56,377 nucleotides of DNA from a virus (IMGVR_UViG_3300042465_002016:1-56377), one strand, 5' to 3'. Positions 30,646 through 47,224 are shown, counted from the first letter of the stretch. Notes: generated from the letters alone by a model not told the origin. Numbers and translations are program-made.

Positions 30646-30667
30646 AGTATAGCAGGGGGGACTGACA
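30646..30667 (-). promoter_or_regulatory. PafBC/RecA-NDp-type promoter
   Basis: TGTCAG-N10-TATACT on minus strand. Confidence 0.75.
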
Positions 30668-30699
30668 TTTTGACCCCTTTTTGGGGCGTGTCTGATGTG

Positions 30700-30867
30700 T
30701 TACTCGTCACACTCGCAAGGCTGAGCGTAGTCAAACTCGCAGAAGTAGCACCCCTGAGCCTCGAAATGCTTGTCGCAATAGTGACGGAATTGGATCTCGC
30801 CACAATGGATAAATTGGGTGTTATCAGTTAAATAGTACTGATTAACGGGATATAGGGTAAGTGACAT
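30700..30867 (-). CDS. Cys-rich (Zn-binding) protein, 55 aa
   Basis: HCGEIQFRHYC...GCYFCEFDY..PCEC; paralog of 35103-35309. Confidence 0.65.
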   Translation of the reverse strand: MSLTLYPVNQYYLTDNTQFIHCGEIQFRHYCDKHFEAQGCYFCEFDYAQPCECDE

Positions 30868-30897
30868 TTGGATGTCCTTTCTTTTTGTTATACCGCA

Positions 30898-30919
30898 ATT
30901 CTAGCAGGGGGTACTGACA
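30898..30919 (-). promoter_or_regulatory. PafBC/RecA-NDp-type promoter
   Basis: TGTCAG-N10-TAGAAT on minus strand. Confidence 0.75.
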
Positions 30920-30957
30920 TTTTGGCATGTATTTCGGGCGTGTCGCAAAACTATTTT

Positions 30958-30973
30958 TGTGATAAACCTCACA
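30958..30973. promoter_or_regulatory. CRP/GlxR-type box
   Basis: TGTGA-TAAACC-TCACA. Confidence 0.7.
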
Positions 30974-31090
30974 CGACAAATGCTAACAAAACGGACATGC
31001 TTCATTAGCAAAAGAGATCCCGGGCCGTGTCAAGTCGACACACCGATATAATTAAAATTGTTACGTAATTGTTATAATTTCCCCCGTTCT

Positions 31091-31122
31091 TGTGATATTC
31101 CTCACATGTGTTCTATGTCACA
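31091..31122. promoter_or_regulatory. Tandem CRP/GlxR-type boxes
   Basis: TGTGA-TATTCC-TCACA followed by TGTGT-TCTATG-TCACA. Confidence 0.7.
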
Positions 31123-31155
31123 ATGTCCGAATTGTTCTGATTGTACCCCTGAAAA

Positions 31156-31177
31156 TGTCAGACCCCTGTGTTAAACT
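31156..31177 (+). promoter_or_regulatory. PafBC/RecA-NDp-type promoter
   Basis: TGTCAG-N10-TAAACT. Confidence 0.75.
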
Positions 31178-31211
31178 TACAGTATAAAGAAAATAAAGAA
31201 AGGTGGTCAAA

Positions 31212-31457
31212 ATGACTACATTAAAAGAAAAAGGTTGGAAATTATCCTTCCGTGTTGAGTTAAACACAAATCCGAAATATCCTCTTATGAAAGAGTTTAG
31301 TACCTGCTTAGGGGTTATCTTTAATTCTGAGATACAGGCTAATGAGTACCTAGACCTTGTAGCCTTAACGGGTACAATTCTAGAAACTAACCTAGAGGAG
31401 ATCGAATATACTCCCTCTAAGTATGTCGCCTATGCTACTAATAGGAGTTGGGAGTGA
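31212..31457 (+). CDS. Hypothetical early protein
   Basis: GAAAGGT RBS before ATG 31212. Confidence 0.65.
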   Translation: MTTLKEKGWKLSFRVELNTNPKYPLMKEFSTCLGVIFNSEIQANEYLDLVALTGTILETNLEEIEYTPSKYVAYATNRSWE

Positions 31458-31496
31458 TGAGTATCACATCGGACACTATGCCTAAATAGGCAAAAA

Positions 31497-31518
31497 TGTC
31501 AGACCCTAATGCTAAACT
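31497..31518 (+). promoter_or_regulatory. PafBC/RecA-NDp-type promoter
   Basis: TGTCAG-N10-TAAACT; CRP-like AGTGA-N6-TCACA at 31453-31468. Confidence 0.75.
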
Positions 31519-31550
31519 TGCCATATAACGAAAACGAAAGGTGGTCAAAA

Positions 31551-31730
31551 ATGACTATACTAAAAACACAAGAGGTTATAGATAACGCCCTCTTATCCGT
31601 ACTAGAGCCTCACCTATACGGCAGAGCCTCTACCGCACTTATCCCATGCTCTAATTGTAGCGATAACTATTTAGAGGTATTTGCTAAAGATAAAAAGTTC
31701 ACTAAGTTCACATGTCAGGAGTGTAAATAA
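31551..31730 (+). CDS. Zn-ribbon hypothetical protein
   Basis: CSNC...CQEC; GAAAGGT RBS. Confidence 0.6.
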   Translation: MTILKTQEVIDNALLSVLEPHLYGRASTALIPCSNCSDNYLEVFAKDKKFTKFTCQECK

Positions 31731-31885
31731 TGAGTACCTTCGAAAAAATAGATTTGGCTTATGCCTTAGCAAAAGAAAAATATGGCGAGAGTAGTCACAC
31801 TTATGCTGCCCTATGGGGTAGCGCAAGCGTATTGCTTAGCGAAAGAGATTTAGATGTCGTAATCAGAGTAATGGAGAAAAAATAA
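31730..31885 (+). CDS. Hypothetical early protein (51 aa)
   Basis: LAKEKYG...YAALWG...ERDL; TAATG coupling. Confidence 0.65.
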   Translation: MSTFEKIDLAYALAKEKYGESSHTYAALWGSASVLLSERDLDVVIRVMEKK

Positions 31886-32061
31886 TGATAACACTTACAC
31901 TTACCTCATATAATGGTAACACTAAAAAAATGCCTTTCTATTCTAAGCAACAGGTACTAGATTTTCTTTCTGCGTTACCTTCACGCCTTAATAAAAACAC
32001 ATCTCTAAAAGTAGAGTGTGACATCTTAGCAATTAACGGAACTATTAGAGGAGATAAATAA
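31885..32061 (+). CDS. Hypothetical early protein (58 aa)
   Basis: MITLTLTS..G.TK.M.F.SK; TAATG coupling. Confidence 0.65.
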   Translation: MITLTLTSYNGNTKKMPFYSKQQVLDFLSALPSRLNKNTSLKVECDILAINGTIRGDK

Positions 32062-32252
32062 TGTTAGATTTTGATGTCGCTTTTGAAATTAAAACTTGGT
32101 TTGATGACATGCTAGACGAATCGTATAAGCCTTTTGAAATTGGTAACTTATCTTTTTCTGCCTCACAGATTTTGCGAGAGTGCGACCCTATTGCTTATCG
32201 CCAATCGCTATTAGATTTTGAGGACGCTATTAGAGAAAATGAAGAGGTATAA
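32061..32252 (+). CDS. Hypothetical protein
   Basis: FDDMLDE.Y...ASQIL...DPIAYR; coupled ORF. Confidence 0.65.
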   Translation: MLDFDVAFEIKTWFDDMLDESYKPFEIGNLSFSASQILRECDPIAYRQSLLDFEDAIRENEEV

Positions 32253-32534
32253 AAATGGAAATAGATTTATTCGGATTTGCTAACGCAATACAATTAGATC
32301 ATTTAAATAATGATCAACTTTTAGAATTAGAAAAAATACTTAACGGAATTGGAGAATAAAAAAAATGGATCTAACTTTTTTCACTGACGGAAGAGCTTTA
32401 TTTTTCTTAACTTTATTTTTTGCTTTTCGTTTTCTATATTTACTTTCTAAAGAATAGGGCCCGGGGCGCAAAAGTCAAATCGACACGCCGCTATATTTAA
32501 AATTGTTATTAAATTGTTACATAATTTTCTCCAA

Positions 32535-32550
32535 TGTGAGAATGATCACA
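32535..32550. promoter_or_regulatory. CRP/GlxR-type box
   Basis: TGTGA-GAATGA-TCACA. Confidence 0.7.
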
Positions 32551-32598
32551 AAAATAATTTAAGAAATGTCCGAATTGTTAGCATTTCTAATTTGATTT

Positions 32599-32620
32599 TG
32601 TCAGTCTAATAGTATAGACT
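32599..32620 (+). promoter_or_regulatory. PafBC/RecA-NDp-type promoter
   Basis: TGTCAG-N10-TAGACT. Confidence 0.75.
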
Positions 32621-32716
32621 TACATAGTAAGCAATTAAACGAAAGGTCAAAAATGACACTAGAGGAATATAAGGCGCACATAGAGGCGCAACGCAACGCA
32701 AGCAAGGCTCAGGCTT

Positions 32717-32738
32717 TGTCAGTCCTATCCGCTACAAT
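32717..32738 (+). promoter_or_regulatory. PafBC/RecA-NDp-type promoter
   Basis: TGTCAG-N10-TACAAT. Confidence 0.7.
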
Positions 32739-32765
32739 TAAAGAAATAAAGAAAGGTGACAACTA

Positions 32766-32975
32766 ATGTCAGCAAAACCATACACAATAATCAGCCTCTT
32801 AGAAGGAAAAAACTATCGCTCACACTCTCGCAATAATGAGGGAGTTATCATACACGCTACACCACGCCCAGATGTCTGGTACGGCTCAGAGTTTGAGGCG
32901 TATGCTATTGAGGTTCGCCCACCATGGGGAACACCAAACTTTTGGGCAACTGTCGCCGTTAAGGTAGGTGCGTAA
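32766..32975 (+). CDS. Hypothetical protein
   Basis: GAAAGGT RBS; 69 aa. Confidence 0.65.
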   Translation: MSAKPYTIISLLEGKNYRSHSRNNEGVIIHATPRPDVWYGSEFEAYAIEVRPPWGTPNFWATVAVKVGA

Positions 32976-33115
32976 TGATAAACTCAGTTCTAACAATTCC
33001 TTGCGAGGAATGCTACTCAACTGGCTTGATCTTTTTTGGATCAGGCGAGGAATATCATGTCGAGCCTTGTCAGTGCGTAGAGGTACAATTATTTAATACA
33101 CCCGAGAATAACTAA
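32975..33115 (+). CDS. Small Zn-finger-like protein (46 aa)
   Basis: CEECYSTG...PCQC; coupled start. Confidence 0.5.
   Translation: MINSVLTIPCEECYSTGLIFFGSGEEYHVEPCQCVEVQLFNTPENN
33068..33089 (+). promoter_or_regulatory. PafBC/RecA-NDp-type promoter
   Basis: TGTCAG-N10-TACAAT. Confidence 0.7.
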
Positions 33116-33130
33116 GGATAGGAAATATAA

Positions 33131-33340
33131 ATGACAATAGCAATCGAACACTCACTAAAGTTTGTAACTGAGTTTGATGAGAATCATCCAGTAGCAAAAC
33201 AATTTTTAGCACTTAGCGAATTGGATCAGATCCAACTTTTAGAATCAGTGCTACATAAATTTATAGTGCCTGCTTTAGAGCCAGCACTTGCTGAAGTAAA
33301 TGAACACGGCACTTACGCAATTCTAAAGGTGGTTAAATAA
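33131..33340 (+). CDS. Hypothetical protein
   Basis: ORF with RBS downstream of promoter. Confidence 0.6.
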   Translation: MTIAIEHSLKFVTEFDENHPVAKQFLALSELDQIQLLESVLHKFIVPALEPALAEVNEHGTYAILKVVK

Positions 33341-33541
33341 ATGATGACTCGTAAAGACTATGTTGCCACTGCTCAAATTCTTAGCAATTATTTTGCTACA
33401 TCTGTTTTTGATGAGCAAGGAGAAATTTTATTTGCTGATTTGGTAGATGAATTTTCTTTAATGTTCGAAACTGATAACGAAAGATTTGACGCAAACAGAT
33501 TTGCTATTGCTTGCTATAAAGAATTGGAGATGGCAAATTGA
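33341..33541 (+). CDS. Hypothetical phage protein
   Basis: MTRKDYV..A...F..DN.RFD..RF..AC, a pattern I recall from other phages. Confidence 0.7.
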   Translation: MMTRKDYVATAQILSNYFATSVFDEQGEILFADLVDEFSLMFETDNERFDANRFAIACYKELEMAN

Positions 33542-33690
33542 TTTTAGATAATGGAACACTAATCGCAATTGTAATTGCTTTAGCTGGATCGGTTGGAATG
33601 ATGATTGCTTTTTGGCAACGCAATATCCAATTAGAAAAAGAAATTCGCAGACTACAAGTTGCTTTGCGAAGTGAAAGAATAAAAAAGTAA
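33538..33690 (+). CDS. Small membrane protein (50 aa)
   Basis: TTG start after GGAG; TM then basic coiled segment. Confidence 0.5.
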   Translation: MILDNGTLIAIVIALAGSVGMMIAFWQRNIQLEKEIRRLQVALRSERIKK

Positions 33691-33695
33691 AATAA

Positions 33696-33723
33696 AAATC
33701 CTTAGCAAGATTTAAAACTGCTA
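33696..33723 (+). ncRNA. Mini H-type pseudoknot motif, copy 1
   Basis: AAATC-CT-TAGCA-A-GATTT-AAAAC-TGCTA. Confidence 0.7.
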
Positions 33724-33738
33724 GCACGGCCCGGGCCC

Positions 33739-33770
33739 TGTGATATTGATCACATGTGATATTTAACACT
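33739..33770. promoter_or_regulatory. Tandem CRP/GlxR-type boxes
   Basis: TGTGA-TATTGA-TCACA then TGTGA-TATTTA-ACACT. Confidence 0.7.
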
Positions 33771-33815
33771 TTACGTCTATTTGATATTTTTCCCCAATTG
33801 TGCTAAGATTAGTTT

Positions 33816-33962
33816 ATGACTAAGAAAACCGCTGAGGAATTACGCAGACTTATGGAACTTCGCCGTTCTAATGCTGCTACCCCTGTTAGGTCTAAGAAAG
33901 TTTATTCTCGAAAAGATAAATGTCAGTCTGCTATGCTAGAATTAAAAAATAACAACAACTAA
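33816..33962 (+). CDS. Small basic protein (48 aa), leaderless
   Basis: ELRRSNAA...SKKVYSRK; ATG 6 nt after TAAGAT. Confidence 0.55.
   Translation: MTKKTAEELRRLMELRRSNAATPVRSKKVYSRKDKCQSAMLELKNNNN
33921..33942 (+). promoter_or_regulatory. PafBC/RecA-NDp-type promoter
   Basis: TGTCAG-N10-TAGAAT. Confidence 0.75.
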
Positions 33963-33978
33963 GAAAGGTCGTGCCCCC

Positions 33979-34158
33979 ATGACATTTGAAAACGATGAAT
34001 TCTTTGATGAATTCTATTCTACTACCTGCCCTAAGTGTAATGAAAATTCCGTTGATCAATATATGCCTATGTGTGATCATTGCTGGTTAAATGAATTAGC
34101 AGATTCTGTTACTCATGAAGACATGGCCTTAGAAATGAGTCTTTCCCTTGACTACTAA
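33979..34158 (+). CDS. Acidic Zn-finger-like protein (59 aa)
   Basis: CPKC...CDHC; GAAAGGT RBS. Confidence 0.55.
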   Translation: MTFENDEFFDEFYSTTCPKCNENSVDQYMPMCDHCWLNELADSVTHEDMALEMSLSLDY

Positions 34159-34882
34159 TCCCCTGAAATTAAAACGTTCTAACGATAGAAAGGTCGCTAA
34201 CCTTGTCACTAAAAATGGAAAACAAGCAGCCATTGCTAATACCTTCGGCCTTCCCGCTGGAAAGGCTTATTCTTGTCCTGGCGCAACGACTGTTTGCGAG
34301 AGTGTCTGTTACGCAGGGAAACTTGAAAAGGTCTTCCCTTCTGTAAAAGTTAACCTGCTACACAACTGGGAACTATTGCGTAATGCTGATTACTTAACTA
34401 TGCTTAATTTGATCGGTGAAATGATTGCTGATTTTAAGGCTGATTGCGTAAAAAAGAATGCGCCCATGCTATTTCGTATCCATTGGGACGGTGACTTCTT
34501 TAATGATACTTATACTACCGCATGGTCTGATGTAATTAAACTTAATGCGGATGTACAATTCTGGGTTTACACTCGTGTTAAGTCTGCTGCTCTCATTCTA
34601 AAAGATATTGAAAACCTCTCACTGTATTTTTCTGCTGATAGCGAGAATGTTAAAACTGCTGTTGATCTAAAAATTAATAGCGGGGTCCGTATGGCATACC
34701 TTGCTAAGAATTTTGCTATAGGTCAAGCAGACATGAAAGAAATGGTTGGGCGCCCTGCTGCTAAATGTCCTGAGAATAATAAACAAATTCCATTGATTAG
34801 CGCTGCTGGCTCCGCATGCGTATCATGTTCACTTTGCGTTTATTCTAAGAGTGATATTATTTTTTCTGCGACTAAGAAATAA
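34148..34882 (+). CDS. GP88-family (Fe-S/radical-SAM-like) protein
   Basis: FGLPAG..CPGAT..C...CYA, FRIHWDGDFF, FWVYTR, C-terminal CxxCxxC. Confidence 0.75.
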   Translation: MTTNPLKLKRSNDRKVANLVTKNGKQAAIANTFGLPAGKAYSCPGATTVCESVCYAGKLEKVFPSVKVNLLHNWELLRNADYLTMLNLIGEMIADFKADCVKKNAPMLFRIHWDGDFFNDTYTTAWSDVIKLNADVQFWVYTRVKSAALILKDIENLSLYFSADSENVKTAVDLKINSGVRMAYLAKNFAIGQADMKEMVGRPAAKCPENNKQIPLISAAGSACVSCSLCVYSKSDIIFSATKK

Positions 34883-34957
34883 TAAAATGAACCATTGGTT
34901 ATATCTTTTTATTTTTCTTATAATTTTATTTATAACCCAGTGAAAGTGGGCCCGGGT

Positions 34958-34977
34958 TTATCCACAGATTATCCACA
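34958..34977 (+). promoter_or_regulatory. Two perfect DnaA boxes
   Basis: TTATCCACA at 34958 and 34969. Confidence 0.75.
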
Positions 34978-35045
34978 GGGTGATTTACGATGTGAGATTA
35001 AACACACCGAAATATTTTCCCAGTTTACGGCGTGTCGTAGAAAAA

Positions 35046-35067
35046 TGTCAGTGACCCATGGTAGGCT
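35046..35067 (+). promoter_or_regulatory. PafBC/RecA-NDp-type promoter
   Basis: TGTCAG-N10-TAGGCT; CRP-like TGTGA-N6-ACACA at 34991. Confidence 0.75.
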
Positions 35068-35102
35068 TACAGTATAAAGAAAAAGAAAGAAGGTTGCCCC
35101 CT

Positions 35103-35309
35103 ATGGCTACAGTTATAGATAAAACAGATCACTATTTAATTTGGGATATATCTCAGATTTGCTGCGATGAAATACAATTCCGTTATCAGTGCCGTGTATG
35201 CGATGAAATGATGGGTTGCTATTTCTGCTCATTTGATTACTCAGAACCCTGCGATTGTCAGTACGACATGGTAGTATCAGAAATATCAACTACGAAAGAA
35301 GGAAACTAA
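35103..35309 (+). CDS. Cys-rich (Zn-binding) protein
   Basis: CCDEIQFRYQC...GCYFCSFDY..PCDC. Confidence 0.65.
   Translation: MATVIDKTDHYLIWDISQICCDEIQFRYQCRVCDEMMGCYFCSFDYSEPCDCQYDMVVSEISTTKEGN
35256..35277 (+). promoter_or_regulatory. PafBC/RecA-NDp-type promoter
   Basis: TGTCAG-N10-TAGTAT. Confidence 0.7.
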
Positions 35310-35518
35310 TGGAATATAACTACTCACTTACCACTTCATATGACGGAGAATTGGTCAATACCTTAAAGGTAGCAGACCTCTTGGAGATTGTAAACGCTTG
35401 GAATCTATGCGTGGACTATGGCACTGCTAAAGAATATGCTACCTATAATTTGTCAGACCCAACGGGTAAGATGTTTACTAAGACCTTTCACCGCAACGGA
35501 ACAGTAGGAGTAAAGTAA
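35309..35518 (+). CDS. Hypothetical protein
   Basis: AAGGA RBS; TAATG coupling. Confidence 0.6.
   Translation: MEYNYSLTTSYDGELVNTLKVADLLEIVNAWNLCVDYGTAKEYATYNLSDPTGKMFTKTFHRNGTVGVK
35451..35472 (+). promoter_or_regulatory. PafBC/RecA-NDp-type promoter (intragenic)
   Basis: TGTCAG-N10-TAAGAT. Confidence 0.6.
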
Positions 35519-35685
35519 TGGCAAGATTTGAGTTTAACACTTTCATAGATGTAGAAGCAGAAAACTATGATGAGGCTATTGATGTTTTTCAATTCCAATT
35601 AAAATATGGAATAGATAAAGATAATGTTTATGTCGCAGACATAAAAGAATTAACTATTTACAACAACGAAGGCGTAGAGGTATAA
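35518..35685 (+). CDS. Hypothetical protein (55 aa)
   Basis: AGGAG RBS; coupled start. Confidence 0.55.
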   Translation: MARFEFNTFIDVEAENYDEAIDVFQFQLKYGIDKDNVYVADIKELTIYNNEGVEV

Positions 35686-35688
35686 ATA

Positions 35689-35976
35689 ATGGGATCAGTA
35701 ACAGCAATTGGATTAGCAGACACAACACTAGACCTTGAAACGCAATTGCGTTATCACTTACAGGGTAATCATTATCCACCAGTACCCGTTGAAATGGTTG
35801 CCCCTTGTATTGAAGCAATAGATGCCGCCTATGATGAGGACTATGAGCGTGTAATTGATATGCCTATGGTTGGTGACTTTCAGATACGTTGGCGTGGTTT
35901 GACCCAAGCACCAGCGTGGGCTATAATTGAACAACACAACCTGTCATGGTTTATTGACCCAGTAGATGAGGACTAA
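35689..35976 (+). CDS. Hypothetical phage protein
   Basis: HLQGNHYPPVP..M..PC..AI. Confidence 0.7.
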   Translation: MGSVTAIGLADTTLDLETQLRYHLQGNHYPPVPVEMVAPCIEAIDAAYDEDYERVIDMPMVGDFQIRWRGLTQAPAWAIIEQHNLSWFIDPVDED

Positions 35977-36107
35977 TGCTATATATGCCCCCTATAAATA
36001 AATGCCCATGTGATGAACACGAGTGTATGAACCAAGATGACTACACTATTGATGAGTATATGTGCGAGGAATGTTTTATGGACTGCGTAGAAATGGATAA
36101 TGCCTAA

Positions 36108-36350
36108 ATGAATGCTACAATGAAACCTATGGAATTAATCTTTGCTGATCGTCTAAACCCAGGGCAACTAATGCTAAATGATTTAATTGGTATTGAGAAT
36201 GATGTTGTTGAAGTTATTGGAGTTAATGATACTAATAACGGAGATGATTACCAAATTGAGTTCATTGATGAGTTTGGTGAAAAAGATATTGTTAATCTAA
36301 AACATGATGAGTTAGTTTCGCTATATGTTTATGTTGAGGATGATGAGTAA
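36108..36350 (+). CDS. Hypothetical acidic protein
   Basis: 80 aa ORF. Confidence 0.55.
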   Translation: MNATMKPMELIFADRLNPGQLMLNDLIGIENDVVEVIGVNDTNNGDDYQIEFIDEFGEKDIVNLKHDELVSLYVYVEDDE

Positions 36351-36415
36351 TTAGCTATACCCTGCGAAAGCAGGCCCGGGCCGCCCAACCTAAGATGATT
36401 GTCAAACCTATTAAG

Positions 36416-36431
36416 TGTGAGATTTATCACT
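36416..36431. promoter_or_regulatory. CRP/GlxR-type box
   Basis: TGTGA-GATTTA-TCACT upstream of TTGACA-N17-CATACT. Confidence 0.6.
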
Positions 36432-36538
36432 TCCCCGATTTACGATACGAATTGACATTTCCTGGATTTTCTGTCATACTTAGGTATAACCAAATAACAA
36501 TTCCAAATAGTGAGATTATCAGATAATAATTTGATAAA

Positions 36539-36560
36539 TGTCAGTAGGAAATGTTATACT
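36539..36560 (+). promoter_or_regulatory. PafBC/RecA-NDp-type promoter
   Basis: TGTCAG-N10-TATACT. Confidence 0.75.
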
Positions 36561-36593
36561 TAAAATATCAACCAAACAGAAAGGTAATACAAA

Positions 36594-36758
36594 ATGACAG
36601 TAGCAACTGCTCTCTACAATGTAGGCGACACCTACACAACCCAAAAGTCAAAGGTTACAGGAACGATTGTATCTATTGACCCACAAGCAAATGGTAATGT
36701 TCGAGTAAAGTTAGATGTTAATGGCGAACACCGCTACACAACTTGGACAGCAAAGTAA
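36594..36758 (+). CDS. Small beta-rich protein (54 aa)
   Basis: MTVATALYNVGD...RYTTWTAK; GAAAGGT RBS. Confidence 0.65.
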   Translation: MTVATALYNVGDTYTTQKSKVTGTIVSIDPQANGNVRVKLDVNGEHRYTTWTAK

Positions 36759-36809
36759 TCTAATTACTAAGTGCCTAGCGTACAGGCACTATAAATAAGT
36801 GGCGTGAAC

Positions 36810-36837
36810 TATCCTGAGCAAGATACCAAAAGGCTCA
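36810..36837 (+). ncRNA. Mini H-type pseudoknot motif, copy 2
   Basis: TATC-CT-GAGC-AA-GATA-CCAAAAG-GCTC. Confidence 0.65.
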
Positions 36838-36843
36838 CCAAAA

Positions 36844-36865
36844 TGTCAGACCAACCCCCTATAAT
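36844..36865 (+). promoter_or_regulatory. PafBC/RecA-NDp-type promoter
   Basis: TGTCAG-N10-TATAAT. Confidence 0.75.
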
Positions 36866-36900
36866 ATAAATACACCACAAACAGAAAAGGAAAATAACAA

Positions 36901-37323
36901 ATGGCTAGAGCAAAAGCAATAAATGTAAAAATCGCAACACCTAAAATCATCACAGCACTAGAAGCCTCCCTTGCTAAGTTAGAGGCAGACTACTCAACAC
37001 AAGAAAAAAACGAAGCAAAGTATCTAAAGGCAGTAGAAAAGTGGAAAGCAGATGTCTTTGCCTTCGCTATGGCTAATGTCAAGAAGTCTTTTAACTTACG
37101 CACTAATTATCGTTCATACAACGAAACACTAAACATTGACTTTGACCTAAAGGTTACAGAGTCAGAAATGCCAAAAGAGCCTGAGCGTGACTTTGAGTTT
37201 ATTCACGCAAGCACTTATCGTGAGTCTAAGAAAGAATTGTCAAACGCAATTCGTATTCTAAAGATGACAGATGAGGAAACAGTTAATACCTCAACTTACA
37301 ACGCAGTATCCGAATACCTATAA
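36901..37323 (+). CDS. Hypothetical protein
   Basis: AAAGGA RBS; ends AIRILKMTDEETVNTSTY...YL. Confidence 0.75.
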   Translation: MARAKAINVKIATPKIITALEASLAKLEADYSTQEKNEAKYLKAVEKWKADVFAFAMANVKKSFNLRTNYRSYNETLNIDFDLKVTESEMPKEPERDFEFIHASTYRESKKELSNAIRILKMTDEETVNTSTYNAVSEYL

Positions 37324-37344
37324 TTTCCATTTCCTATGGGAACT

Positions 37345-37370
37345 GTCCTGAGCATGACTAGAAACTGCTC
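37345..37370 (+). ncRNA. Mini H-type pseudoknot motif, copy 3
   Basis: GTC-CT-GAGCA-T-GAC-TAGAAAC-TGCTC. Confidence 0.7.
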
Positions 37371-37397
37371 AACACAAAATCTTAGAAAGGTAGCCCA

Positions 37398-37661
37398 ATG
37401 ATTAGCACAATGTTACAGATTAAAGAAGCAACAGAGGAAGCCCTCTTTGATCCTGATCTAATGAGTTTAGCACGATTCATGTTTGAAAATCGTGAGTATA
37501 TGGAAACTGAGGAATTTGCTCAATTACTATTTAAATACAGTTCCTCACTGTCAGCCCTAACAGCAACACTTGTTTCACAGGTTTGTTTATCACACTCAGA
37601 TATGTCAGACATGGTTGCTACAATTAAAGAAATGAAACAACTAACAGAGAGTATGGAGTAG
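37398..37661 (+). CDS. Hypothetical protein
   Basis: GAAAGGT RBS. Confidence 0.65.
   Translation: MISTMLQIKEATEEALFDPDLMSLARFMFENREYMETEEFAQLLFKYSSSLSALTATLVSQVCLSHSDMSDMVATIKEMKQLTESME
37603..37624 (+). promoter_or_regulatory. PafBC/RecA-NDp-type promoter (intragenic)
   Basis: TGTCAG-N10-TACAAT, 40 nt before next start. Confidence 0.65.
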
Positions 37662-37664
37662 CCC

Positions 37665-38069
37665 ATGAATACAACAGCAATCGCAACAGAGGATTTTCTT
37701 AAGGCCACTATCGCTAAGCAAGAGGAGCGCATTAATGATTTGACTGCACATGCCCAGCGCTTAGCGCAGCGTGACTATGACACAGCAGGCACCTTACAAA
37801 AACTGCGGGATGACCTTCATGAATGGACTATGAACGCATTGGAAGAGGCTTCAATCAATGAAGCAGAAGCGCAAGAGATTGCCGACATTGCTGGTTTTGA
37901 ATTAACACAAGAATTTGAATTAGAAGTATCAGTTCAATATTCAATAACCGTTAACGCTAAGAATTTAGAAGAGGCCATGAACGCAATTCATGATTTAGAT
38001 CTTGATTCTATTTCATATGACGAACCAATCACATATCTTTCGGGGACGATTGACCGCATAGATATTTAG
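37665..38069 (+). CDS. Hypothetical acidic protein
   Basis: GGAG RBS; 134 aa. Confidence 0.7.
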   Translation: MNTTAIATEDFLKATIAKQEERINDLTAHAQRLAQRDYDTAGTLQKLRDDLHEWTMNALEEASINEAEAQEIADIAGFELTQEFELEVSVQYSITVNAKNLEEAMNAIHDLDLDSISYDEPITYLSGTIDRIDI

Positions 38070-38084
38070 TAGGGGGCTACTAAT

Positions 38085-38111
38085 GGACCTGAGCACGTCC
38101 TTAAACTGCTT
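38085..38111 (+). ncRNA. Mini H-type pseudoknot motif, copy 4
   Basis: GGAC-CT-GAGCA-C-GTCC-TTAAAC-TGCTT. Confidence 0.7.
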
Positions 38112-38156
38112 CACAAATCCCGGGGGCAAAAATCTTAATTTGTCAAATCTATAAGC

Positions 38157-38172
38157 TGTGATTAAGATCACC
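38157..38172. promoter_or_regulatory. CRP/GlxR-type box
   Basis: TGTGA-TTAAGA-TCACC. Confidence 0.6.
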
Positions 38173-38219
38173 TAGAAAAATGTCCAGATTGTCCACATCT
38201 AACTATCCTAATTTGTATT

Positions 38220-38241
38220 TGTCAGTCTATCCTGCTATACT
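38220..38241 (+). promoter_or_regulatory. PafBC/RecA-NDp-type promoter
   Basis: TGTCAG-N10-TATACT. Confidence 0.75.
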
Positions 38242-39293: not shown

Positions 39294-39297
39294 CAAA

Positions 39298-39715: not shown

Positions 39716-39957
39716 TGTTTGAATCTAACTGGATTAAGTATGAATGGCTATGTACTGAGTGTGATAGTTTAATGGAACTTAGCACTTATTGGAAAGAGGA
39801 GTATGTAACTACCCCTGTTTGTCCCTGCCCACATCAGGCTATTATTGGGATTGGCAGGCATGTCCTGGAGTCATCATCCTTTGTTTCATACCACAGTGAT
39901 GTGACCAGTATCACACCTACGCCGCTTGTCAAAATCAACTCAAACCCCTATAATTAA
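39715..39957 (+). CDS. Zn-ribbon-like hypothetical protein
   Basis: CTEC...CPC. Confidence 0.5.
   Translation: MFESNWIKYEWLCTECDSLMELSTYWKEEYVTTPVCPCPHQAIIGIGRHVLESSSFVSYHSDVTSITPTPLVKINSNPYN
39900..39954 (+). promoter_or_regulatory. CRP box plus SigA-type promoter
   Basis: TGTGA-CCAGTA-TCACA then TTGTCA-N17-TATAAT. Confidence 0.65.
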
Positions 39958-40114
39958 TATATGGACCTAAAAACAATAACAGAGTATATAAACATACATA
40001 AGGTATCAATGGAACAAGACTTAGAGACAATTAAAAACTCTGGTCGTTGGGCTAATGATAGAGTTGCCTTAGAAGGTGCTATCAACGTATCTAATCATTA
40101 CTTGGAGTATATCA

Positions 40115-40396
40115 ATGAGCGATAAGTATCCTTTTATACCTGACCATTTAACTAAGGCATTAGAAGATATCTCTATTCCATTAATTGATATCATGCATGG
40201 TGAACTAAAGAATCTAATGCTTATTACTGAACAAATATGGGAGGCTGCTAAAAACGGGGACCCATTAGAAGAAGATGAGTATGATGAATCAGATGATTAT
40301 CATCAGGGGTACCTACAGGCCTTGACAGATATGTACTGCCTAACGTATAATTTAAGTATTGACCGTAAAAATATTGAGGAGAAATATAATGCCTAA
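40115..40396 (+). CDS. Hypothetical acidic protein
   Basis: GGAG RBS before ATG 40115. Confidence 0.6.
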   Translation: MSDKYPFIPDHLTKALEDISIPLIDIMHGELKNLMLITEQIWEAAKNGDPLEEDEYDESDDYHQGYLQALTDMYCLTYNLSIDRKNIEEKYNA

Positions 40397-40568
40397 GTGT
40401 TTAGATTGTGGTAACACTAAATTCTTTACTTACTGTGAGAACAGTTACAACGAAGCCGAGTATGACGAAAGCGGTGAGATGATAGATGTAATCTATAAAG
40501 AGTACCACGAGCCAGAGGAAGCCACCTGTAAAGAGTGTGAGTCTATTAACATTGAGGGTAAAGTATGA
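40389..40568 (+). CDS. Zn-ribbon protein
   Basis: CLDCGN...CKECES; AGGAG RBS. Confidence 0.6.
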   Translation: MPKCLDCGNTKFFTYCENSYNEAEYDESGEMIDVIYKEYHEPEEATCKECESINIEGKV

Positions 40569-40897
40569 GTATCCTAATTGAAATGGACTATGATGAATGG
40601 TTTGATACCTACAAGCCAATACCCAATCATATAGACACTAATGCTTCATTTAGCGATGGAGAGTATGGCTATATGTTTGAAACATATGGAGATGAACTAA
40701 CATTTATACAGGGGGCCAATGATAACGTTATTTGGACTTATGGGGATGGTGATGATGGAGGCACGTATATCTGGTCTGGTTATAGCTTTGTTAATAGGAT
40801 TGGATATTTTATTACTGAACGGCCTTGGGTAAATGATGTTCAGGCTTTAGTTATCCCAGCAGATGATGAACTTGACAATGATGAGGATGAGGAGTAA
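40565..40897 (+). CDS. Hypothetical phage protein
   Basis: YKPIPNH...FETYG...IWT...G..FVNRIGYFITE. Confidence 0.7.
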   Translation: MSILIEMDYDEWFDTYKPIPNHIDTNASFSDGEYGYMFETYGDELTFIQGANDNVIWTYGDGDDGGTYIWSGYSFVNRIGYFITERPWVNDVQALVIPADDELDNDEDEE

Positions 40898-40906
40898 AAT
40901 TGTAGT

Positions 40907-41254
40907 ATGACCAAAAAAATAACACTAGACCTAGACCTACACTACGCTGGCATGATCGCAATTGACTCAGGGCAAGCAATGGTTGGCGACCCTGCCTACC
41001 TTGACAACTGGGATGATGACAAAACTAAAGAATGGAATCTCGAAGGCAAAGTAGGCCAGTACTCTTATCAAGGTGCTAGCGCTACTACTCTTACTAAGAA
41101 CTATGGGCAATTAGAAACTGCTACTGCTGTGGTATTCAGTACTGGACTTGGTGACGGACTATATCCTGTCTATGTTCATACAGACGAGGAAGGCACAATT
41201 ACTAAGGTAGTTATTGATTTCGAAGGGGATATTGACCACTATGAATCCGACTGA
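40907..41254 (+). CDS. DUF4241-like protein
   Basis: IDSGQAMVGDP...STGLGDGLYPVY. Confidence 0.6.
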   Translation: MTKKITLDLDLHYAGMIAIDSGQAMVGDPAYLDNWDDDKTKEWNLEGKVGQYSYQGASATTLTKNYGQLETATAVVFSTGLGDGLYPVYVHTDEEGTITKVVIDFEGDIDHYESD

Positions 41255-41537
41255 TAAAGATAAACTAAACCAATGTATATCCCTTCTAGAATCTACGGAC
41301 CTATTCCCTTCACTAGTATGGCTATGGACATGGGATGTTGTTAAAAGTATTTTAGGCGACCCTGAGTATAAAGTAAATGTAACAGAGGAGCAAATGTGGG
41401 GGCACCTATGTGAGGCCGTAGAGAACGGCATGGGTTTCTCTATGGAGTTTGGTTCGGAGTCACTTCACGAGGATATCAGGGAGTGGATGTTGGAGAAAGA
41501 ATACATCTCAGACCCATACGATGAAGATGACGACTAA
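41241..41537 (+). CDS. Hypothetical protein
   Basis: ORF in operon. Confidence 0.6.
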   Translation: MNPTDKDKLNQCISLLESTDLFPSLVWLWTWDVVKSILGDPEYKVNVTEEQMWGHLCEAVENGMGFSMEFGSESLHEDIREWMLEKEYISDPYDEDDD

Positions 41538-41709
41538 CAGATTAGATAAGCGTTTATCTGAATATACATTCGATGAACTATGCGTTGCCATATGTGAATG
41601 GTGCAAGGACCCTGATATGAATATGTCAGAGTACATGTGCCCTAACTGCTACAAAGATGACGAACAGATCTGCACAGAATGCTGCGGATGTTATGATGAG
41701 GAGAACTAA
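41521..41709 (+). CDS. Cys-rich hypothetical protein
   Basis: CEWC, CPNC, CTECCGC; start uncertain. Confidence 0.5.
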   Translation: MKMTTNRLDKRLSEYTFDELCVAICEWCKDPDMNMSEYMCPNCYKDDEQICTECCGCYDEEN

Positions 41710-42065
41710 TGGGAGCACGTATTAACTTTATATTTAAAGACTCAGAGTCAGGGCCTAGTGTAGTACTATATAGTCATTGGGGCCAGATGAACTGGCAACC
41801 TGATATCGCTGCAGCCCTAACACATTCAAGGGCCCGTTGGTCAGACTCTTCATATGCCACCCGCATGATGATTAGTTATCTTATTCAAGACAGTGTTCTA
41901 GACGAGCACGGTTTTGGAATCTATGCAATTAACAATGAGTCATGGGACCTTGGCGAGCAAAGCATTGTTGTTGACTTTGTTAATAATACTATTACTGATA
42001 TTCACCCTGTTGAATTTAACGCATTTATTAATGCATATGCACCTCATCTATCACTAACTAACTAA
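41709..42065 (+). CDS. Hypothetical phage protein
   Basis: MGARINF...LYSHWG...RWSD.SY..R. Confidence 0.7.
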   Translation: MGARINFIFKDSESGPSVVLYSHWGQMNWQPDIAAALTHSRARWSDSSYATRMMISYLIQDSVLDEHGFGIYAINNESWDLGEQSIVVDFVNNTITDIHPVEFNAFINAYAPHLSLTN

Positions 42066-42075
42066 GGAGAAACAA

Positions 42076-42234
42076 ATGGCTAAGAAATCAAAAGCAAAAA
42101 CAATCCCGTACCTAGAAACATGGGATACCCGTTACGGTAAGTCTCAACGTCTTGTACTTCGTAAGAATGGTAAGTTTGTCGATAATACCAGTCTTACAGC
42201 CCTAAAGCAAGGGGAACGGGTCACCTCTCGCTAA
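42076..42234 (+). CDS. Small basic protein (52 aa)
   Basis: AAGGAG RBS. Confidence 0.6.
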   Translation: MAKKSKAKTIPYLETWDTRYGKSQRLVLRKNGKFVDNTSLTALKQGERVTSR

Positions 42235-42313
42235 TATAAAGATGAGGGGCGCATGCTTGTGGTGAACTTGCGCCTCTCTCTTTTATTTGCTATAATGGAC
42301 AGGAGAGGAAAAC

Positions 42314-42550
42314 ATGTATCGAATTACTCGCAGTACCCATACCACTAAAGAGGAAAAGGTTGCTCAAAAAATCTCGGTATTGTTATCAGACTTTACTCTT
42401 GATCTAGAAAAGGTAGGATACTACCTAGCAAAGGCAATCCCACTTCTATTGTTTAAGCGGTCACTAGAAGTATTAGAGTCAGCACAATTCCAAGATGATA
42501 TAATGGAACAAGAGAGAATAGGATATGACCATGACAGACTTTTATCTTAA
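42314..42550 (+). CDS. Hypothetical protein
   Basis: RBS and TGCTATAAT promoter upstream. Confidence 0.65.
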   Translation: MYRITRSTHTTKEEKVAQKISVLLSDFTLDLEKVGYYLAKAIPLLLFKRSLEVLESAQFQDDIMEQERIGYDHDRLLS

Positions 42551-42788
42551 GTGTGACATCTTAAAAGATTTTGCTGTAAGGTATGAAGAAGAGTATAAAG
42601 AATTTATTGAGTTCAACGATATAGGTTTTCCAATAGCGTACTTCCATTCCGAAGGTTTAGTAATGGCTAAGGTTGATGGGCAACGTTATGTCGAAGAAAC
42701 ATGGGAATTACTATTAGCAGAGATGGACGTTGATGATACAGGGTTTGAAGATCTTGATCATCTGATAGAAAGTATTCCACATCAATAA
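42525..42788 (+). CDS. Hypothetical acidic protein
   Basis: F.EFNDIG.P.AY...ETW..LL. Confidence 0.65.
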   Translation: MTMTDFYLKCDILKDFAVRYEEEYKEFIEFNDIGFPIAYFHSEGLVMAKVDGQRYVEETWELLLAEMDVDDTGFEDLDHLIESIPHQ

Positions 42789-42806
42789 TTTTTAGCTACC
42801 TGGTGT

Positions 42807-42836
42807 GGCCCTTCGGGGCCCCCCGGGATTTTTTTT
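42807..42836 (+). terminator. Putative terminator ending the early region
   Basis: GGCC-CTTCGG-GGCC hairpin followed by CCCGGG and T8 run. Confidence 0.6.
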
Positions 42837-42839
42837 GCA

Positions 42840-43600
42840 AATTTATCAAACCATCAAACCTTAAAACCCTATTACGAACCAAACCTTATTTTTCCCAGAA
42901 CTTTATTACGATAGACAAATAATTTTCCCCAATCATAGACAAACCTTCAAACCAGCTATAAAGGTTTTGTATTGTATCTTATACTACTGACATTACGAAC
43001 TGACTTATTTATCCCCCGCCCCAGAAATGACTGCCAGGATAGCTACACATCCCGCAGCGGGGGATCAAAAGATATACCAAATTCCCTAGTATAAAAGACA
43101 TTACGAATAACAAACCTTTTTCCCTGGTTTCTAGATATTTATAAAACCTTTCTATTATTTTTTATTAATTAATTGGACATTTCGAGCAATTTTGTATAGG
43201 GTTTTTAGGCTATAAAGGTTTGACAAATAGAGGTTTGAATGGTATACTCCACAGCTGGGAAGGGAAGGTTTGACAAAGGAAAGGTTTTGTGGTAGGGTTT
43301 TAAAACGTCCTGGACATTACGAACCCTTCTGTCTAAATGCTCCATACTCCACTTCCCTCCCTTTTCCTCCACTCAAAGATAAATCTAAAAAATATCAGTA
43401 AGATCTATCCTGTGGATAACTACAGTAAACCTGTGGATAACTTTACCAAACCATGCCTTCTCCCTGTGGATAACTCTATGATATGATGGACATATGAAAC
43501 CTTTATTAGTCATTTTGCTTGGTCTATTTATCTTTGTAAACTACATGGCATATCTCCAACAAATCCGTATGACCTCATAAACATTACGATAGATCAAATC
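42840..43600. other. Repeat-rich, largely non-coding, origin-like region
   Basis: Repeated ATTACGA, AAACC(T)/AGGTTT, TTTTCCC; AT-rich stretch; DnaA boxes TGTGGATAA at 43411, 43432, 43465. Confidence 0.55.
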
Positions 43601-43739
43601 TTTTCCCCAATCATGGTATGATATCTATATGAAAAATACATATAAGTGTCCAGAATGTGCTACCTCTATTGTCATTACAACCAAGGTACATGATCTACCA
43701 GAGTCTATCATCTGTCCTTGTGATGCTGTAATGCCATTA

Positions 43740-43780
43740 AAACCTTAGCCTTTACCTAACAAACCTTAGCCTTTACCTAA
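43740..43780 (+). repeat. Tandem 20-nt direct repeat
   Basis: AAACCTTAGCCTTTACCTAA x2, separated by one C. Confidence 0.85.
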
Positions 43781-44254
43781 TTTGTCAGGGTATACAATCA
43801 TCTGGCTGTGTGGTATCATGGATATATGGAAATCTTAACCGAACAATGTTATTACTGCGATAAGCCAGCAGAGTATAATGACATTGTTGTAGAAGACCTA
43901 GTATATTCTGTCTCTGGCGTATGTAAGAAACATCTTAGAATGGGGTTATCATCATGAATGACTATAGACCTATAAGTATCTTAGCTTTTATACTTGTTAT
44001 AGCGTTAACGGGAGTTGTTTTCTTTTACCCCGCATAAATAGGGTGCTTGACATACCCTTTGAAATTTGCTACACTTAGATTGAAAAGGAGAAACACATGA
44101 CAACACAAATGATACATGAACTAATGCAAGCAATGTTTGACAACAATAAGTCAGGCGGACTTGATTATGTTGAAAGCAACACGGTCAAAGAGATAATCCA
44201 GGGATACTTCCCAAAGGCTGTTGAGTCTTTCGAACCTGCTTACTAATATAAACC

Positions 44255-44280
44255 CTCCTAGACATGAGTATAAACTGTCT
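44255..44280 (+). ncRNA. Mini H-type pseudoknot motif, copy 6
   Basis: CTC-CT-AGACA-T-GAG-TATAAAC-TGTCT. Confidence 0.7.
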
Positions 44281-44309
44281 ACTTAAAATTTCTACAACAT
44301 ATAGGATAC

Positions 44310-44711
44310 TTGATGACGATTAGACAAGTTAGAACAAAGAGTAATAGATACAATACTGTAAAGTATGACAGTGCTGGGAATATATTAACACCAGCTAGGA
44401 AGAAAGAGATCAAAGAGCTTAAAAAGCTTTCTAAAAACCCTAATGAGAAAAAGGCACCATTAATGAGTAAATGTGGAGCTATTACAAAGAAGAAAAGACC
44501 GTGCCCAATCTTAGTAGAAGCATGGAGAACCAGTGGTTTTTGCCATGTCCATGATCCAGCAGGTAAGTTTAGGCAGCAAACCAAGAAAAAAGGTTATAAG
44601 ACTCATACCTATAAATTAGATTGTAATCACAAATGGTATATGCGGGATGAAGGTATTACCTGTAAGAATTGTCTTATCATTTGGAATCCTGAGATGGATG
44701 CTAACCTATAG
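44310..44711 (+). CDS. Basic Zn-finger protein
   Basis: CGAITKKKRPC...FCHVH (DUF5763-like CCCH); second C.H..CxxC. Confidence 0.55.
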   Translation: MMTIRQVRTKSNRYNTVKYDSAGNILTPARKKEIKELKKLSKNPNEKKAPLMSKCGAITKKKRPCPILVEAWRTSGFCHVHDPAGKFRQQTKKKGYKTHTYKLDCNHKWYMRDEGITCKNCLIIWNPEMDANL

Positions 44712-44972
44712 TGCCCGTGTAGGGCAGGGGAAGGTTTGTTACCCTCTATTTTCCGCCGAACTTGACTAATTTTTCGCCAAGGTGTATACTAAGTATATGA
44801 ATTGTAAACAGTGTGGTATGAATAAAGAAGATATCTCATATTGGGACAATCATCAAACCATGAGTGATTATAGGGTGTGGTGTGCCAAAAGAATCTAAGA
44901 TTATGCGTATGGACTGGAAATCTTTAGGATATTGGCCTGTCTACAAAGACGGCAGAATGGTGTGGGAAAAAA

Positions 44973-45278
44973 ATGATAACCATAAAGATTCAAAAGACTA
45001 AGATACTTCCATTACGATGGATCGGTAATTTATTTGAAAAGATTTCTAGCCCTCATTTAATGAAAGCTTTACACTATGATGATCACGACGATCATGGGTT
45101 TGCTTATAAATACCATTCAGTTATGTGGACAATACTTCGCAGACCATATAAATGGTGGGGAACATATTATGAACTTGACCTACAAGGAATGATAGATGAT
45201 TTAAAAGGATCTGGTTGGGATGACTATGATGAATTTGGCAAAGCATATTGGGATAATGATAAAGGGGAACAAGAATGA
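44973..45278 (+). CDS. Hypothetical protein
   Basis: 101 aa ORF. Confidence 0.55.
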   Translation: MITIKIQKTKILPLRWIGNLFEKISSPHLMKALHYDDHDDHGFAYKYHSVMWTILRRPYKWWGTYYELDLQGMIDDLKGSGWDDYDEFGKAYWDNDKGEQE

Positions 45279-45429
45279 AAAAATCAAACGTAAAAGCTTC
45301 ACAGGCTAAAGTAAAAAGAGCAATAAAAAATAAAAAAAGATTGGCAGATAAGCCAAAGACTTCTAGCCATGAGGCAAAGATTCAAAGAATTCGTCAAGAT
45401 ATTATCGCAGAGCACCTAGGTAATTTCTA

Positions 45430-45636
45430 ATGTGGTCATGGGTATTAGCAGCAATAGGCGTTACAGGCATCTTCCTGGTCGGTAGAAAGACTATCTGGGG
45501 TTGGTTGGTACTATGTGTCAATGAGTGCTTATGGATTGCGTATGCTCTTGCTACTAAGCAATATGGGTTTATAGTTGCTGCGATTGCTTATGGTATTGTA
45601 TATATTAAATCATTTATGCATTGGAGAAAAGGTTGA
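45430..45636 (+). CDS. Small membrane protein, PnuC-like half-transporter fold
   Basis: Three hydrophobic helices; G.K..WGW, LW..YA....QYG. Confidence 0.55.
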   Translation: MWSWVLAAIGVTGIFLVGRKTIWGWLVLCVNECLWIAYALATKQYGFIVAAIAYGIVYIKSFMHWRKG

Positions 45637-45995: not shown

Positions 45996-46164
45996 TGCGT
46001 AATAGTTTTGAGTTTGAAGAATTAGATGAACCTGTAGATTTACAAGTGCACACTCTTTCACCTACAAAGTGGATGTTAGTTGACCGTGAAACAGGACAGG
46101 TGTATACTGGTAATAAGAATGGCTATTGGGATAGGTTAGAACCAATTATTAAGAAAGAAGTTTA

Positions 46165-46578: not shown

Positions 46579-46602
46579 TATTAGAAAGAGTATACTTAGT
46601 AT

Positions 46603-47064: not shown

Positions 47065-47069
47065 CATAG

Positions 47070-47143: not shown

Positions 47144-47147
47144 CGAA

Positions 47148-47220: not shown

Positions 47221-47224
47221 CTAA

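Follow-up and report, generated by a model that had tools for sequence, protein, structure and literature searches.

The viral DNA stretch IMGVR_UViG_3300042465_002016:1-56377 (56,377 b; hereafter the window, i.e., the whole stretch that was analyzed, to which all coordinates refer unless another record is named) carries 15 exact copies of the motif TGTCAG-N10-TANNNT, packed into one block of 7.6 kb (30646-38241). These copies are very probably real promoters with a position-locked -26 element; judged from their sequence, their anatomy is that of promoters of the sigma-70 family that have an extended -10 element plus a rigidly placed upstream element. The host DNA-damage activator PafBC is our best single guess for the protein that reads the -26 element, a guess we would place just short of probable. 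The sites had been listed in a preliminary description of the window as promoters of the RecA-independent DNA-damage (RecA-NDp) type. All 15 coordinates and strands were correct on rescanning, and the observation is stronger than first stated, conserved sites numbering in the hundreds within a large clade of phages.

As the preliminary description had proposed, the motif was scanned against a shuffled background (both strands, 100 dinucleotide shuffles), with the reversed pattern as a second control. Sixteen exact matches were found in the window (the 15 sites of the block and one at 42971, described below) vs. a shuffle mean of 0.85 (standard deviation 0.95, maximum 4; 0/100 shuffles reached 16), and the reversed pattern gave 0 + 0 matches. 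On its own, the hexamer shows no enrichment (28 TGTCAG copies vs. 26.4 expected); the signal resides in its register with TANNNT, which 16 of these 28 copies keep. Spacings of N8, N9 and N11 gave no match in the window, the only N12 match is site 36844 read in a different register, and one-mismatch variants of the motif occur at chance level. TGTCGG-N10-TANNNT was not found in the window (a TGTCRG scan returned the identical 16 matches). The 13 plus-strand and two minus-strand sites of the block flank a divergence point near 31.0 kb.

Each of the 15 sites precedes an ATG-initiated open reading frame (ORF) on the same strand (37-338 amino acids), equipped with a GAAAGG-type Shine-Dalgarno sequence. 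The sites had been placed roughly 25-55 nt before start codons in the direction of transcription; the orientation holds for 15/15, while the gap between the -10 element and the start codon is narrower (27-45 nt). The dinucleotide TG occupies -15/-14 in 10/15 sites, and an A is present 7 nt after the -10 element in 11/15. Taken together, the co-orientation, extended -10 element, A at the predicted start, leader and Shine-Dalgarno sequence indicate that the sites behave as promoters. Their layout differs from the canonical SigA promoter with a TTGACA-like -35 element at 17 ± 1 bp: TTG at -35/-36 is missing from 12/15 sites (-35-like TTG hexamers accompany sites 32599, 36539 and 38220), and there is no -35 consensus in the clade.

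The clade set was composed of 80 related loci (1.32 Mb; the IMG/VR relatives total 393), and clade counts refer to deduplicated sets, i.e., 439 unique cores for the logo, 432 unique sites for the -35 region and 779 unique sites for upstream boxes. The logo (window plus 80 loci) comprises an A/T-rich stretch at -31 to -29, TGTCAG at -28 to -23 followed by W-S-S-C, T at -15 (67%) and G at -14 (76%), and then TAnAMT; an A lies 7 nt past the -10 element in 77% of cores, with a T before it in 61% and an A-rich leader after it, and T at -35 reaches just 50%. In the 80 relatives 687 in-register sites were counted vs. 3 for the reversed control, or, expressed by spacing, 624 + 63 matches for N10 vs. 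1 + 6 for an N13 control. All 268 TGTCAG sites with a strong extended -10 element sit exactly 7 nt from TGn, and none was found at the other spacings from 3 to 12. The promoter of the DUF932 gene, orthologous in the 80 relatives, gave a footprint of 58 unique sequences, 57 of which retain GTC; the hexamer variants at this promoter are TGTCGG (5, followed by TGG), TGTCTG (2) and TGTCAC (1). In-register TGTCGG was counted 27 times across the relatives vs. 1 in the control, and in a distant lineage (L126) TGTC(A/G)GTGG occupies 9/9 sites, which we take to be the full 5' half of the RecA-NDp motif.

Five complete relatives (G001-G005, 112-119 kb) were examined, and in each the matches concentrate in one block of about 4-10 kb: 6/7 in G001, 7/9 in G002, 10/11 in G003 and 9/11 in G005, with 8/8 forward-strand matches (of 13 in total) within 5.4 kb in G004, where two reverse-strand matches lie at the block edge. 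The idea of a genome-wide phage strategy, raised in the preliminary description, does not hold, since in the window and in these relatives the sites are confined to one early block. A longer, 14-base version of the promoter, scanned in IMG/VR, was found in at least 120 stretches from at least 80 loci. Among the matches listed, multi-site loci are relatives only, down to ~50% DUF932 identity; several sites are present in most of the 54 loci that resemble the window at the protein level, the other 26 loci show no such resemblance and mostly contain single chance-like matches (L163, with typical flanks, is the exception), and no independent motif-using lineage was found. By this distribution, the element is a mark of a broad aquatic phage clade.

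The virus record is rated 52% complete, with a guanine-plus-cytosine (GC) content of ~36% and a full genome estimated at ~115 kb. No DNA-level match of the window was found among 50,697 phage records. A WhiB-family gene is located at 55496..55777 on the minus strand (PF02467, E 1.6e-12, 44.1 bits, cut-off 23.6), and WhiB is also encoded by 5/5 complete relatives; the papers PMC6802176 and PMC10202952 present WhiB as the field's marker for phages of Actinobacteria. The WhiB protein is 37-40% identical to those of Rhodococcus phage Grayson and Streptomyces BE phages, the portal protein is 45-46% identical to that of the BE phages (~130 kb), and the DUF932 protein shares 51-52% identity with BE phage proteins. 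The GP88-family protein shares 54-56% identity with proteins of Mycobacterium cluster A phages, e.g., D29, and its 390 matching records comprise 283 of Mycobacterium, 101 of Streptomyces, 4 of Fromanvirus and 2 of Synechococcus. On the evidence of WhiB and of core genes closest to those of actinobacterial phages, the window phage is an actinophage; among cultured phages, those most closely related to it infect Streptomyces and Rhodococcus and have genomes of ~130 kb.

The GC content of 36% and the freshwater-type metagenomes of origin imply that the host is not Mycobacterium; it is most likely a low-GC freshwater actinobacterium. M. smegmatis, in which the preliminary description had suggested reporter assays, would accordingly be a surrogate at most. 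RNA runs holding small shares of the region are seven lake or freshwater metatranscriptomes, and contigs from four lake RNA runs (400, 141, 46 and 122 contigs; at least 88% likeness) cover relatives of the 30-40.5 kb region. These contigs lack 5' ends, strand and level, and DNA carry-over is possible, so they provide no evidence on start sites. In two runs, RNA-library contigs join position ~33722 to 39329-39340, just before tRNA-Asp, skipping ~5.6 kb; such contigs, skipping 33721-39340, suggest that some relatives lack part of the early block or have it replaced, i.e., mosaicism.

Two candidate host signals were rejected. A scan of genome contigs for the ribonucleotide reductase protein yielded five loci (L091-L095), all of them on phage contigs, whose unrelated metagenome-assembled genome (MAG) labels (Flavobacterium, Chitinophagaceae, Bifidobacterium, Gammaproteobacteria and Beijerinckiaceae) represent binning contamination and not host evidence. 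The MAG G006 is not actinobacterial, and the WhiB Pfam family is present in 0/12 genomes of its order; the phage WhiB query had no match at E ≤ 1e-8 in 300 other genomes of the class of G006, a threshold that is perhaps too strict. The literature search returned no paper linking Nanopelagicales with PafBC.

The RecA-NDp geometry attributed to the sites in the preliminary description was borne out: they match the consensus tGTCgg(N10)tA(N3)T, reported from chromatin immunoprecipitation sequencing of PafBC in PMC8635444, in which the 5' part lies at -28 to -23 and the 3' part equals the SigA -10 element. According to the same paper, PafBC promoters have no -35 element. The GTC triplet is described as strictly conserved across Actinobacteria and read by residues R46 and R50 of PafB, and PafBC as inserting between sigma domain 4 and DNA ("sigma adaptation") upon activation by single-stranded DNA (ssDNA) (PMC8635444; PMC11804915), and RecA-NDp is stated to extend beyond mycobacteria (PMC8223512). 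The phage sites are alike in their GTC-containing hexamer, TGTC(A/G)G, located at -28 to -23 and exactly 10 bp before TAnnnT, in the absence of a -35 element from most of them, and in the phylum of the host. The strict GTC at this position is found in 16/16 window sites and in the 57 of 58 orthologous promoters mentioned above, whose variation, with TGTCGG among the variants, likewise agrees with the PafBC consensus, and the 10-bp spacing is equally strict, both in the window (0 matches at N8, N9 and N11) and in the 268/268 strong sites of the clade. PafBC was ranked first mainly because a chance convergence of an unrelated reader on this hexamer, at this position and with this spacing, seems unlikely.

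The phage sites also depart from PafBC promoters: they form a dense block (15 in 7.6 kb), position 5 of their hexamer is A in about 90% or more of sites (G is rarer), and they have a strong extended -10 element, accompanied in a third of the clade sites by a -35 element.

In the mechanism that we propose, the 15 sites would be the promoters from which a large phage (~115 kb), encoding WhiB and infecting an uncultured actinobacterium of freshwater, expresses its early genes. Each module would comprise: (i) an A/T-rich segment at -31 to -29; (ii) TGTCAG at -28 to -23; (iii) a spacer of exactly 10 bp; (iv) an extended -10 element (TGnTAnAMT); (v) a start at the A 7 nt later; (vi) a leader of ~20-38 nt with a GAAAGG Shine-Dalgarno sequence; and (vii) a single tiny ORFan gene or a small number of them. 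The -10 element would be read by the host RNA polymerase carrying the housekeeping sigma factor, and an adaptor placed between sigma domain 4 and DNA would simultaneously read the -26 hexamer. The likeliest adaptor would be host PafBC activated by ssDNA, by which the early block of the phage would be coupled to the ssDNA and DNA-damage sensor of its host. We tentatively put forward, as something conceivable and not yet probable, that a globally abundant clade of freshwater actinophages has rebuilt its immediate-early promoters on the PafBC -26 element of the host, so that ssDNA arising from infection or damage triggers the takeover genes. The host activator would then stand in for a phage sigma factor or for MotA/AsiA, and sites that retain a -35 element would be dual-mode promoters. 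Of the early region wired to PafBC, as proposed in the preliminary description, the PafBC-type architecture, the actinophage nature of the virus and the promoter-like character of the sites stand, and what counts against it is the restriction to one block, the non-Mycobacterium host and the -35 element in ~35% of clade sites.

Several observations weigh against PafBC as the reader. Dependence on PafBC is something we infer from the identity of the motif only, and a source of ssDNA in the first minute of infection is an assumption. The phage sites precede ORFan genes, not repair genes. Their hexamer hardly varies at any of its six positions, in contrast to host regulons, where strictness is limited to GTC; a near-fixed hexamer could mean a different, more specific reader. 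TTG at -35/-36 is present in 151 of the 432 unique clade sites (~35%; background 4.4%), and a perfect TTGACA abuts TGTCAG in 30 of the 432; such sites could fire without any adaptor and would be dual-mode at best.

The same direction is indicated by boxes lying upstream of the hexamer. The DUF932 promoter is preceded by ATGTCC-N5-TGTCC at 38180..38196 (+), ~40 nt before its TGTCAG, with similar boxes at 31123 and 32566, and the form of this box in the clade is (A)TGTCCG-N4-5-TGTCC/TTGT, about 33-40 nt before TGTCAG. Among the 779 unique clade sites TGTCCG is located at -60 in 61 and at -68/-67 in 27, and GACAC at -53 in 46; a second position-locked box in a subset of promoters hints at a dedicated regulator. 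The block is moreover adjoined downstream by a second promoter class, spread over 39926..47344 (+), with canonical TTGACA-N17/18-TATAAT at 39926, 40322, 40872, 43220 and 47315, which may mean two temporal classes and leaves room for a phage-made activator.

Cultured phages add to these objections. The whole record of Streptomyces phage Jay2Jay gave 2 motif matches vs. 5 in the control, that of Rhodococcus phage Grayson gave 0 vs. 5, and nine further cultured actinophages (hosts: Rhodococcus, Streptomyces, Gordonia, Microbacterium, Brevibacterium, Mycobacterium, Nocardia and Arthrobacter) gave 9 vs. 3 in total, with no cluster. The host genera of these phages, among them Rhodococcus and Gordonia, are known to use PafBC. 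Jay2Jay (cluster BE, Stanwilliamsviridae) possesses a block homologous to that of the window, with a DUF932 protein of 51% identity, a 244-amino-acid gene at the GP88 position and numerous small genes that are individually preceded by a promoter and a leader. This block falls within the terminal repeat of Jay2Jay (the DUF932 gene occurs twice per record), and its promoters are of the form TTGTAT-N17/18-TAGACT, with no TGTCAG in the homologous early block.

The strongest competitor of host PafBC is an adaptor encoded by the phage or delivered with the virion, which would read TGTCAG either by sigma appropriation of the T4 MotA/AsiA kind or as a PafB-like helix-turn-helix (HTH) protein devoid of a WYL domain; the TGTCAG block would then be a delayed-early or middle class whose activator is a product of the block with canonical promoters (39.9-47.3 kb). 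The proximity of that class speaks for such an adaptor, two classes being often two temporal classes, as do the six fixed bases, tighter than the host PafBC consensus, the dozens of candidate ORFans, and the lack of the motif in cultured relatives on PafBC-bearing hosts, which is expected for a clade-specific phage reader. In architecture, T4 middle promoters resemble the window sites, with a fixed-distance upstream box (the MotA box) that replaces the -35 element beside a good -10 element, and the authors of PMC8635444 themselves liken PafBC promoters to T4 MotA/AsiA; the box of the window sites is, however, centered at -26, not -30, and is unrelated in sequence.

A candidate adaptor did not emerge from the proteins scanned. 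WYL and Sigma70_r2 domains were each found in 0/5 complete relatives, and Pfam comparison of 86 proteins of at least 90 amino acids from G003 (families covered: 15/15 in one set and 25/31 in the other) listed DnaE-type polymerase, DnaB, primase, RecA, ferritin/Dps, HSP20, nuclease, APS kinase, and proteins of structure and lysis; families of RNA polymerases, sigma factors or HTH regulators were absent from the matches listed. Among the scanned proteins, which are part of the proteome, none resembling MotA or AsiA was recognized. Twenty small proteins encoded at 31.2-47.6 kb showed no DNA-binding or repressor-type family in Pfam and PHROGs; the early proteins matched only GP88, DUF932, DUF4241 and phrog_31860, all of unknown function. 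The most conserved unknown early proteins, of 140 and 95 amino acids, were modeled with AlphaFold (predicted local distance difference test scores of 83.0 and 87.1, respectively). In the protein atlas the former matched viral hypothetical clusters only and the latter nothing, and the models had no convincing match in the PDB and none to a DNA-binding protein (the lowest E values in Foldseek were 0.12 and 1.5, and the highest Z scores in VIA-align wide were 6.5, due to generic long helices, and 3.0).

An unrelated phage adaptor would, in addition, have to share with PafBC, by coincidence, the GTC-containing hexamer, the -28 to -23 position and the 10-bp spacing. The homologous Streptomyces block, situated within the terminal repeat and bearing sigma-70-like promoters, is consistent with immediate-early expression, a role that no newly made factor could fill. 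The search for a reader lowers the standing of a phage factor, which we consider unlikely, albeit not to the point of neglect.

It is less probable still that host SigA needs no partner at these sites, which would be ordinary promoters of the extended -10 type with TGTCAG as the operator of a shut-off repressor or another regulator of phage or host origin. Large lytic phages commonly shut off their early genes, many of the sites could work without an activator (TG at -15/-14 in most, a TTG -35 element in 35%), and the TGTCC(G) boxes at -60 to -68 in a subset raise the prospect of one protein binding several sites. Operators, by contrast, need no single spacing or orientation, and here 687 sites are in register vs. 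7 off it, with 268/268 at one spacing; such invariance suggests that the contact to RNA polymerase is rigid. At 6 bp, the hexamer is also short for a stand-alone operator, and no repressor-type family was found among the scanned proteins.

Sigma adaptation may be a general actinobacterial mode with several readers, which would admit a host WYL-family -26 activator other than PafBC, e.g., a SiwR-like protein; SiwR of M. smegmatis is reported to work via the -26 region as well, with a conserved GGA triplet (PMC10693628). The conserved core of the phage sites is instead GTC, the triplet specific to PafB, and their spacing is that of the PafBC motif. Of the readers weighed here, we regard this one as very improbable. 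A sigma-54 reader was rejected, its -24/-12 spacing being incompatible with the sites; Actinobacteria are also not known to carry rpoN.

Sigma adaptation by PafBC is known only for host DNA-damage genes, and a literature search, conducted mainly at title and abstract level, found no paper that links the PafBC motif to phage promoters. The topic of a 2025 paper in ACS Infect Dis, as cited in PMC12848934, is pafBC and mycobacteriophage resistance, and it may bear on novelty. If phages do exploit PafBC, this would be a new route of transcriptional takeover, in which early expression is tied to ssDNA sensing, in a phage group common in lakes (393 IMG/VR relatives). Should the reader be another factor, the clade would still offer naturally varying copies of a rigid -26/-10 promoter by the hundreds, a data set from which to find that factor. 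Conservation of the PafBC motif throughout Actinobacteria makes it possible to test the promoters in surrogate systems.

The two minus-strand promoters of the block are located at 30646..30667 (TGTCAG-N10-TATACT), 33 nt from the ATG of a 73-amino-acid ORF (30391-30612, -), and at 30898..30919 (TGTCAG-N10-TAGAAT), with a 30-nt gap to a 55-amino-acid ORF (30700-30867, -); both have the TG of the extended -10 element (at -15/-14 in site 30646) and an A at the predicted +1, and neither has a -35 element. The remaining promoters are on the plus strand. The first rightward unit is formed by TGTCAG-N10-TAAACT at 31156..31177 and an 81-amino-acid ORF (31212-31457); its upstream box, ATGTCCGAATTGTT at 31123, lies 33 nt upstream of the site. 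The promoter at 31497..31518 precedes four small ORFs (31551-32252), that at 32599..32620, with a -35-like TTGATT and an ATGTCC box at 32566, precedes a 37-amino-acid ORF (32653-32766), and that at 32717..32738, placed within the 3' end of the preceding ORF, serves a 69-amino-acid ORF (32766-32975). The sequence TGTCAGTG is shared by the promoters at 33068..33089 and 35046..35067, upstream of ORFs of 69 (33131-33340) and 68 amino acids (35103-35309), respectively.

Between these two, site 33921..33942 precedes an ORF at 33979-34158 together with the GP88-family gene (34148-34882). Further downstream, the promoters at 35256..35277 and 35451..35472 precede a 69-amino-acid ORF (35309-35518) and the ORFs at 35518-36350, respectively, and the promoter at 36539..36560, with a -35-like TTGATA and an 18-bp spacer, precedes a 54-amino-acid ORF (36594-36758). 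The last three are found at 36844..36865, before the conserved 140-amino-acid ORF (36901-37323), at 37603..37624, before a 134-amino-acid ORF (37665-38069), and at 38220..38241, where a -35-like TTGTAT accompanies the promoter of the DUF932 gene (38277-39293). The sixteenth match of the window, which the preliminary description had not listed, is located at 42971..42992 on the minus strand; it is an orphan, antisense to the local genes and with no downstream ORF. It is retained at the matching place in four relatives (L010, L012 and L014, with 99-100% DUF932 identity, and L029, with 91%), and is probably a chance match (0.85 expected) or an antisense start.

Among cultured phages, Microbacterium phage Phonegingi (OR475255.1, 39 kb) has two TGTCGG-N10-TAnnnT sites vs. 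0 in the control, one at 28505-28526 (+) of its record, in the gap between the DnaB and SSB genes and 56 nt before ssb, and the other at 22987-23008 (+), inside a RuvC-like gene and 157 nt before a RecE-like gene. The promoters of Jay2Jay are preceded by CCGGACA, which is the other-strand form of the word in the clade upstream box. A RecA homolog (PF00154, E about 1e-35) is encoded by 5/5 complete relatives of the window phage; the gene (G003:C1:30614-31624, - strand) is placed inside the replication operon, directly after the DnaE-type polymerase gene, and has no TGTCAG promoter of its own.

In the second promoter class, the predicted transcription start, 6-7 nt after the -10 element, falls on a start codon for the sites at 39926 (start codon at 39961), 40322 (40359, TTG), 40872 (40907), 46568 (46603) and 47315 (47351). 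Start and start codon coincide in 4/8 canonical window sites matching at least 11/12 positions vs. 0 at control offsets. The corresponding mRNAs would be leaderless, a common trait in Actinobacteria. A terminator scan of the window gave 9 candidates vs. 12.9 ± 4.2 in shuffles, i.e., no enrichment.

Beyond the early region, the window contains five tRNA genes, tRNA-Asp (GTC) alone at 39333-39407 and Arg-TCT, Met-CAT, Asn-GTT and Gly-TCC in a row at 46992-47296. Nine tandem ORFs of 219-252 amino acids occupy 8534-14852 on the minus strand, of which the one scanned, 9203-9895, encodes a 2OG-Fe(II) oxygenase (PF13640), a family that five proteins of the relative G003 match. The contig of G003 (116,566 b) begins with 30 bases that recur at 114,879, giving an overlap of 1,687 b that is not identical. 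A sugar-modification cluster is located at 47719-54205 of the window, composed of genes for glycosyltransferases, an NAD-dependent epimerase/dehydratase, methyltransferases of the FkbM and class I types, and a protein with a weak Stealth-like match.

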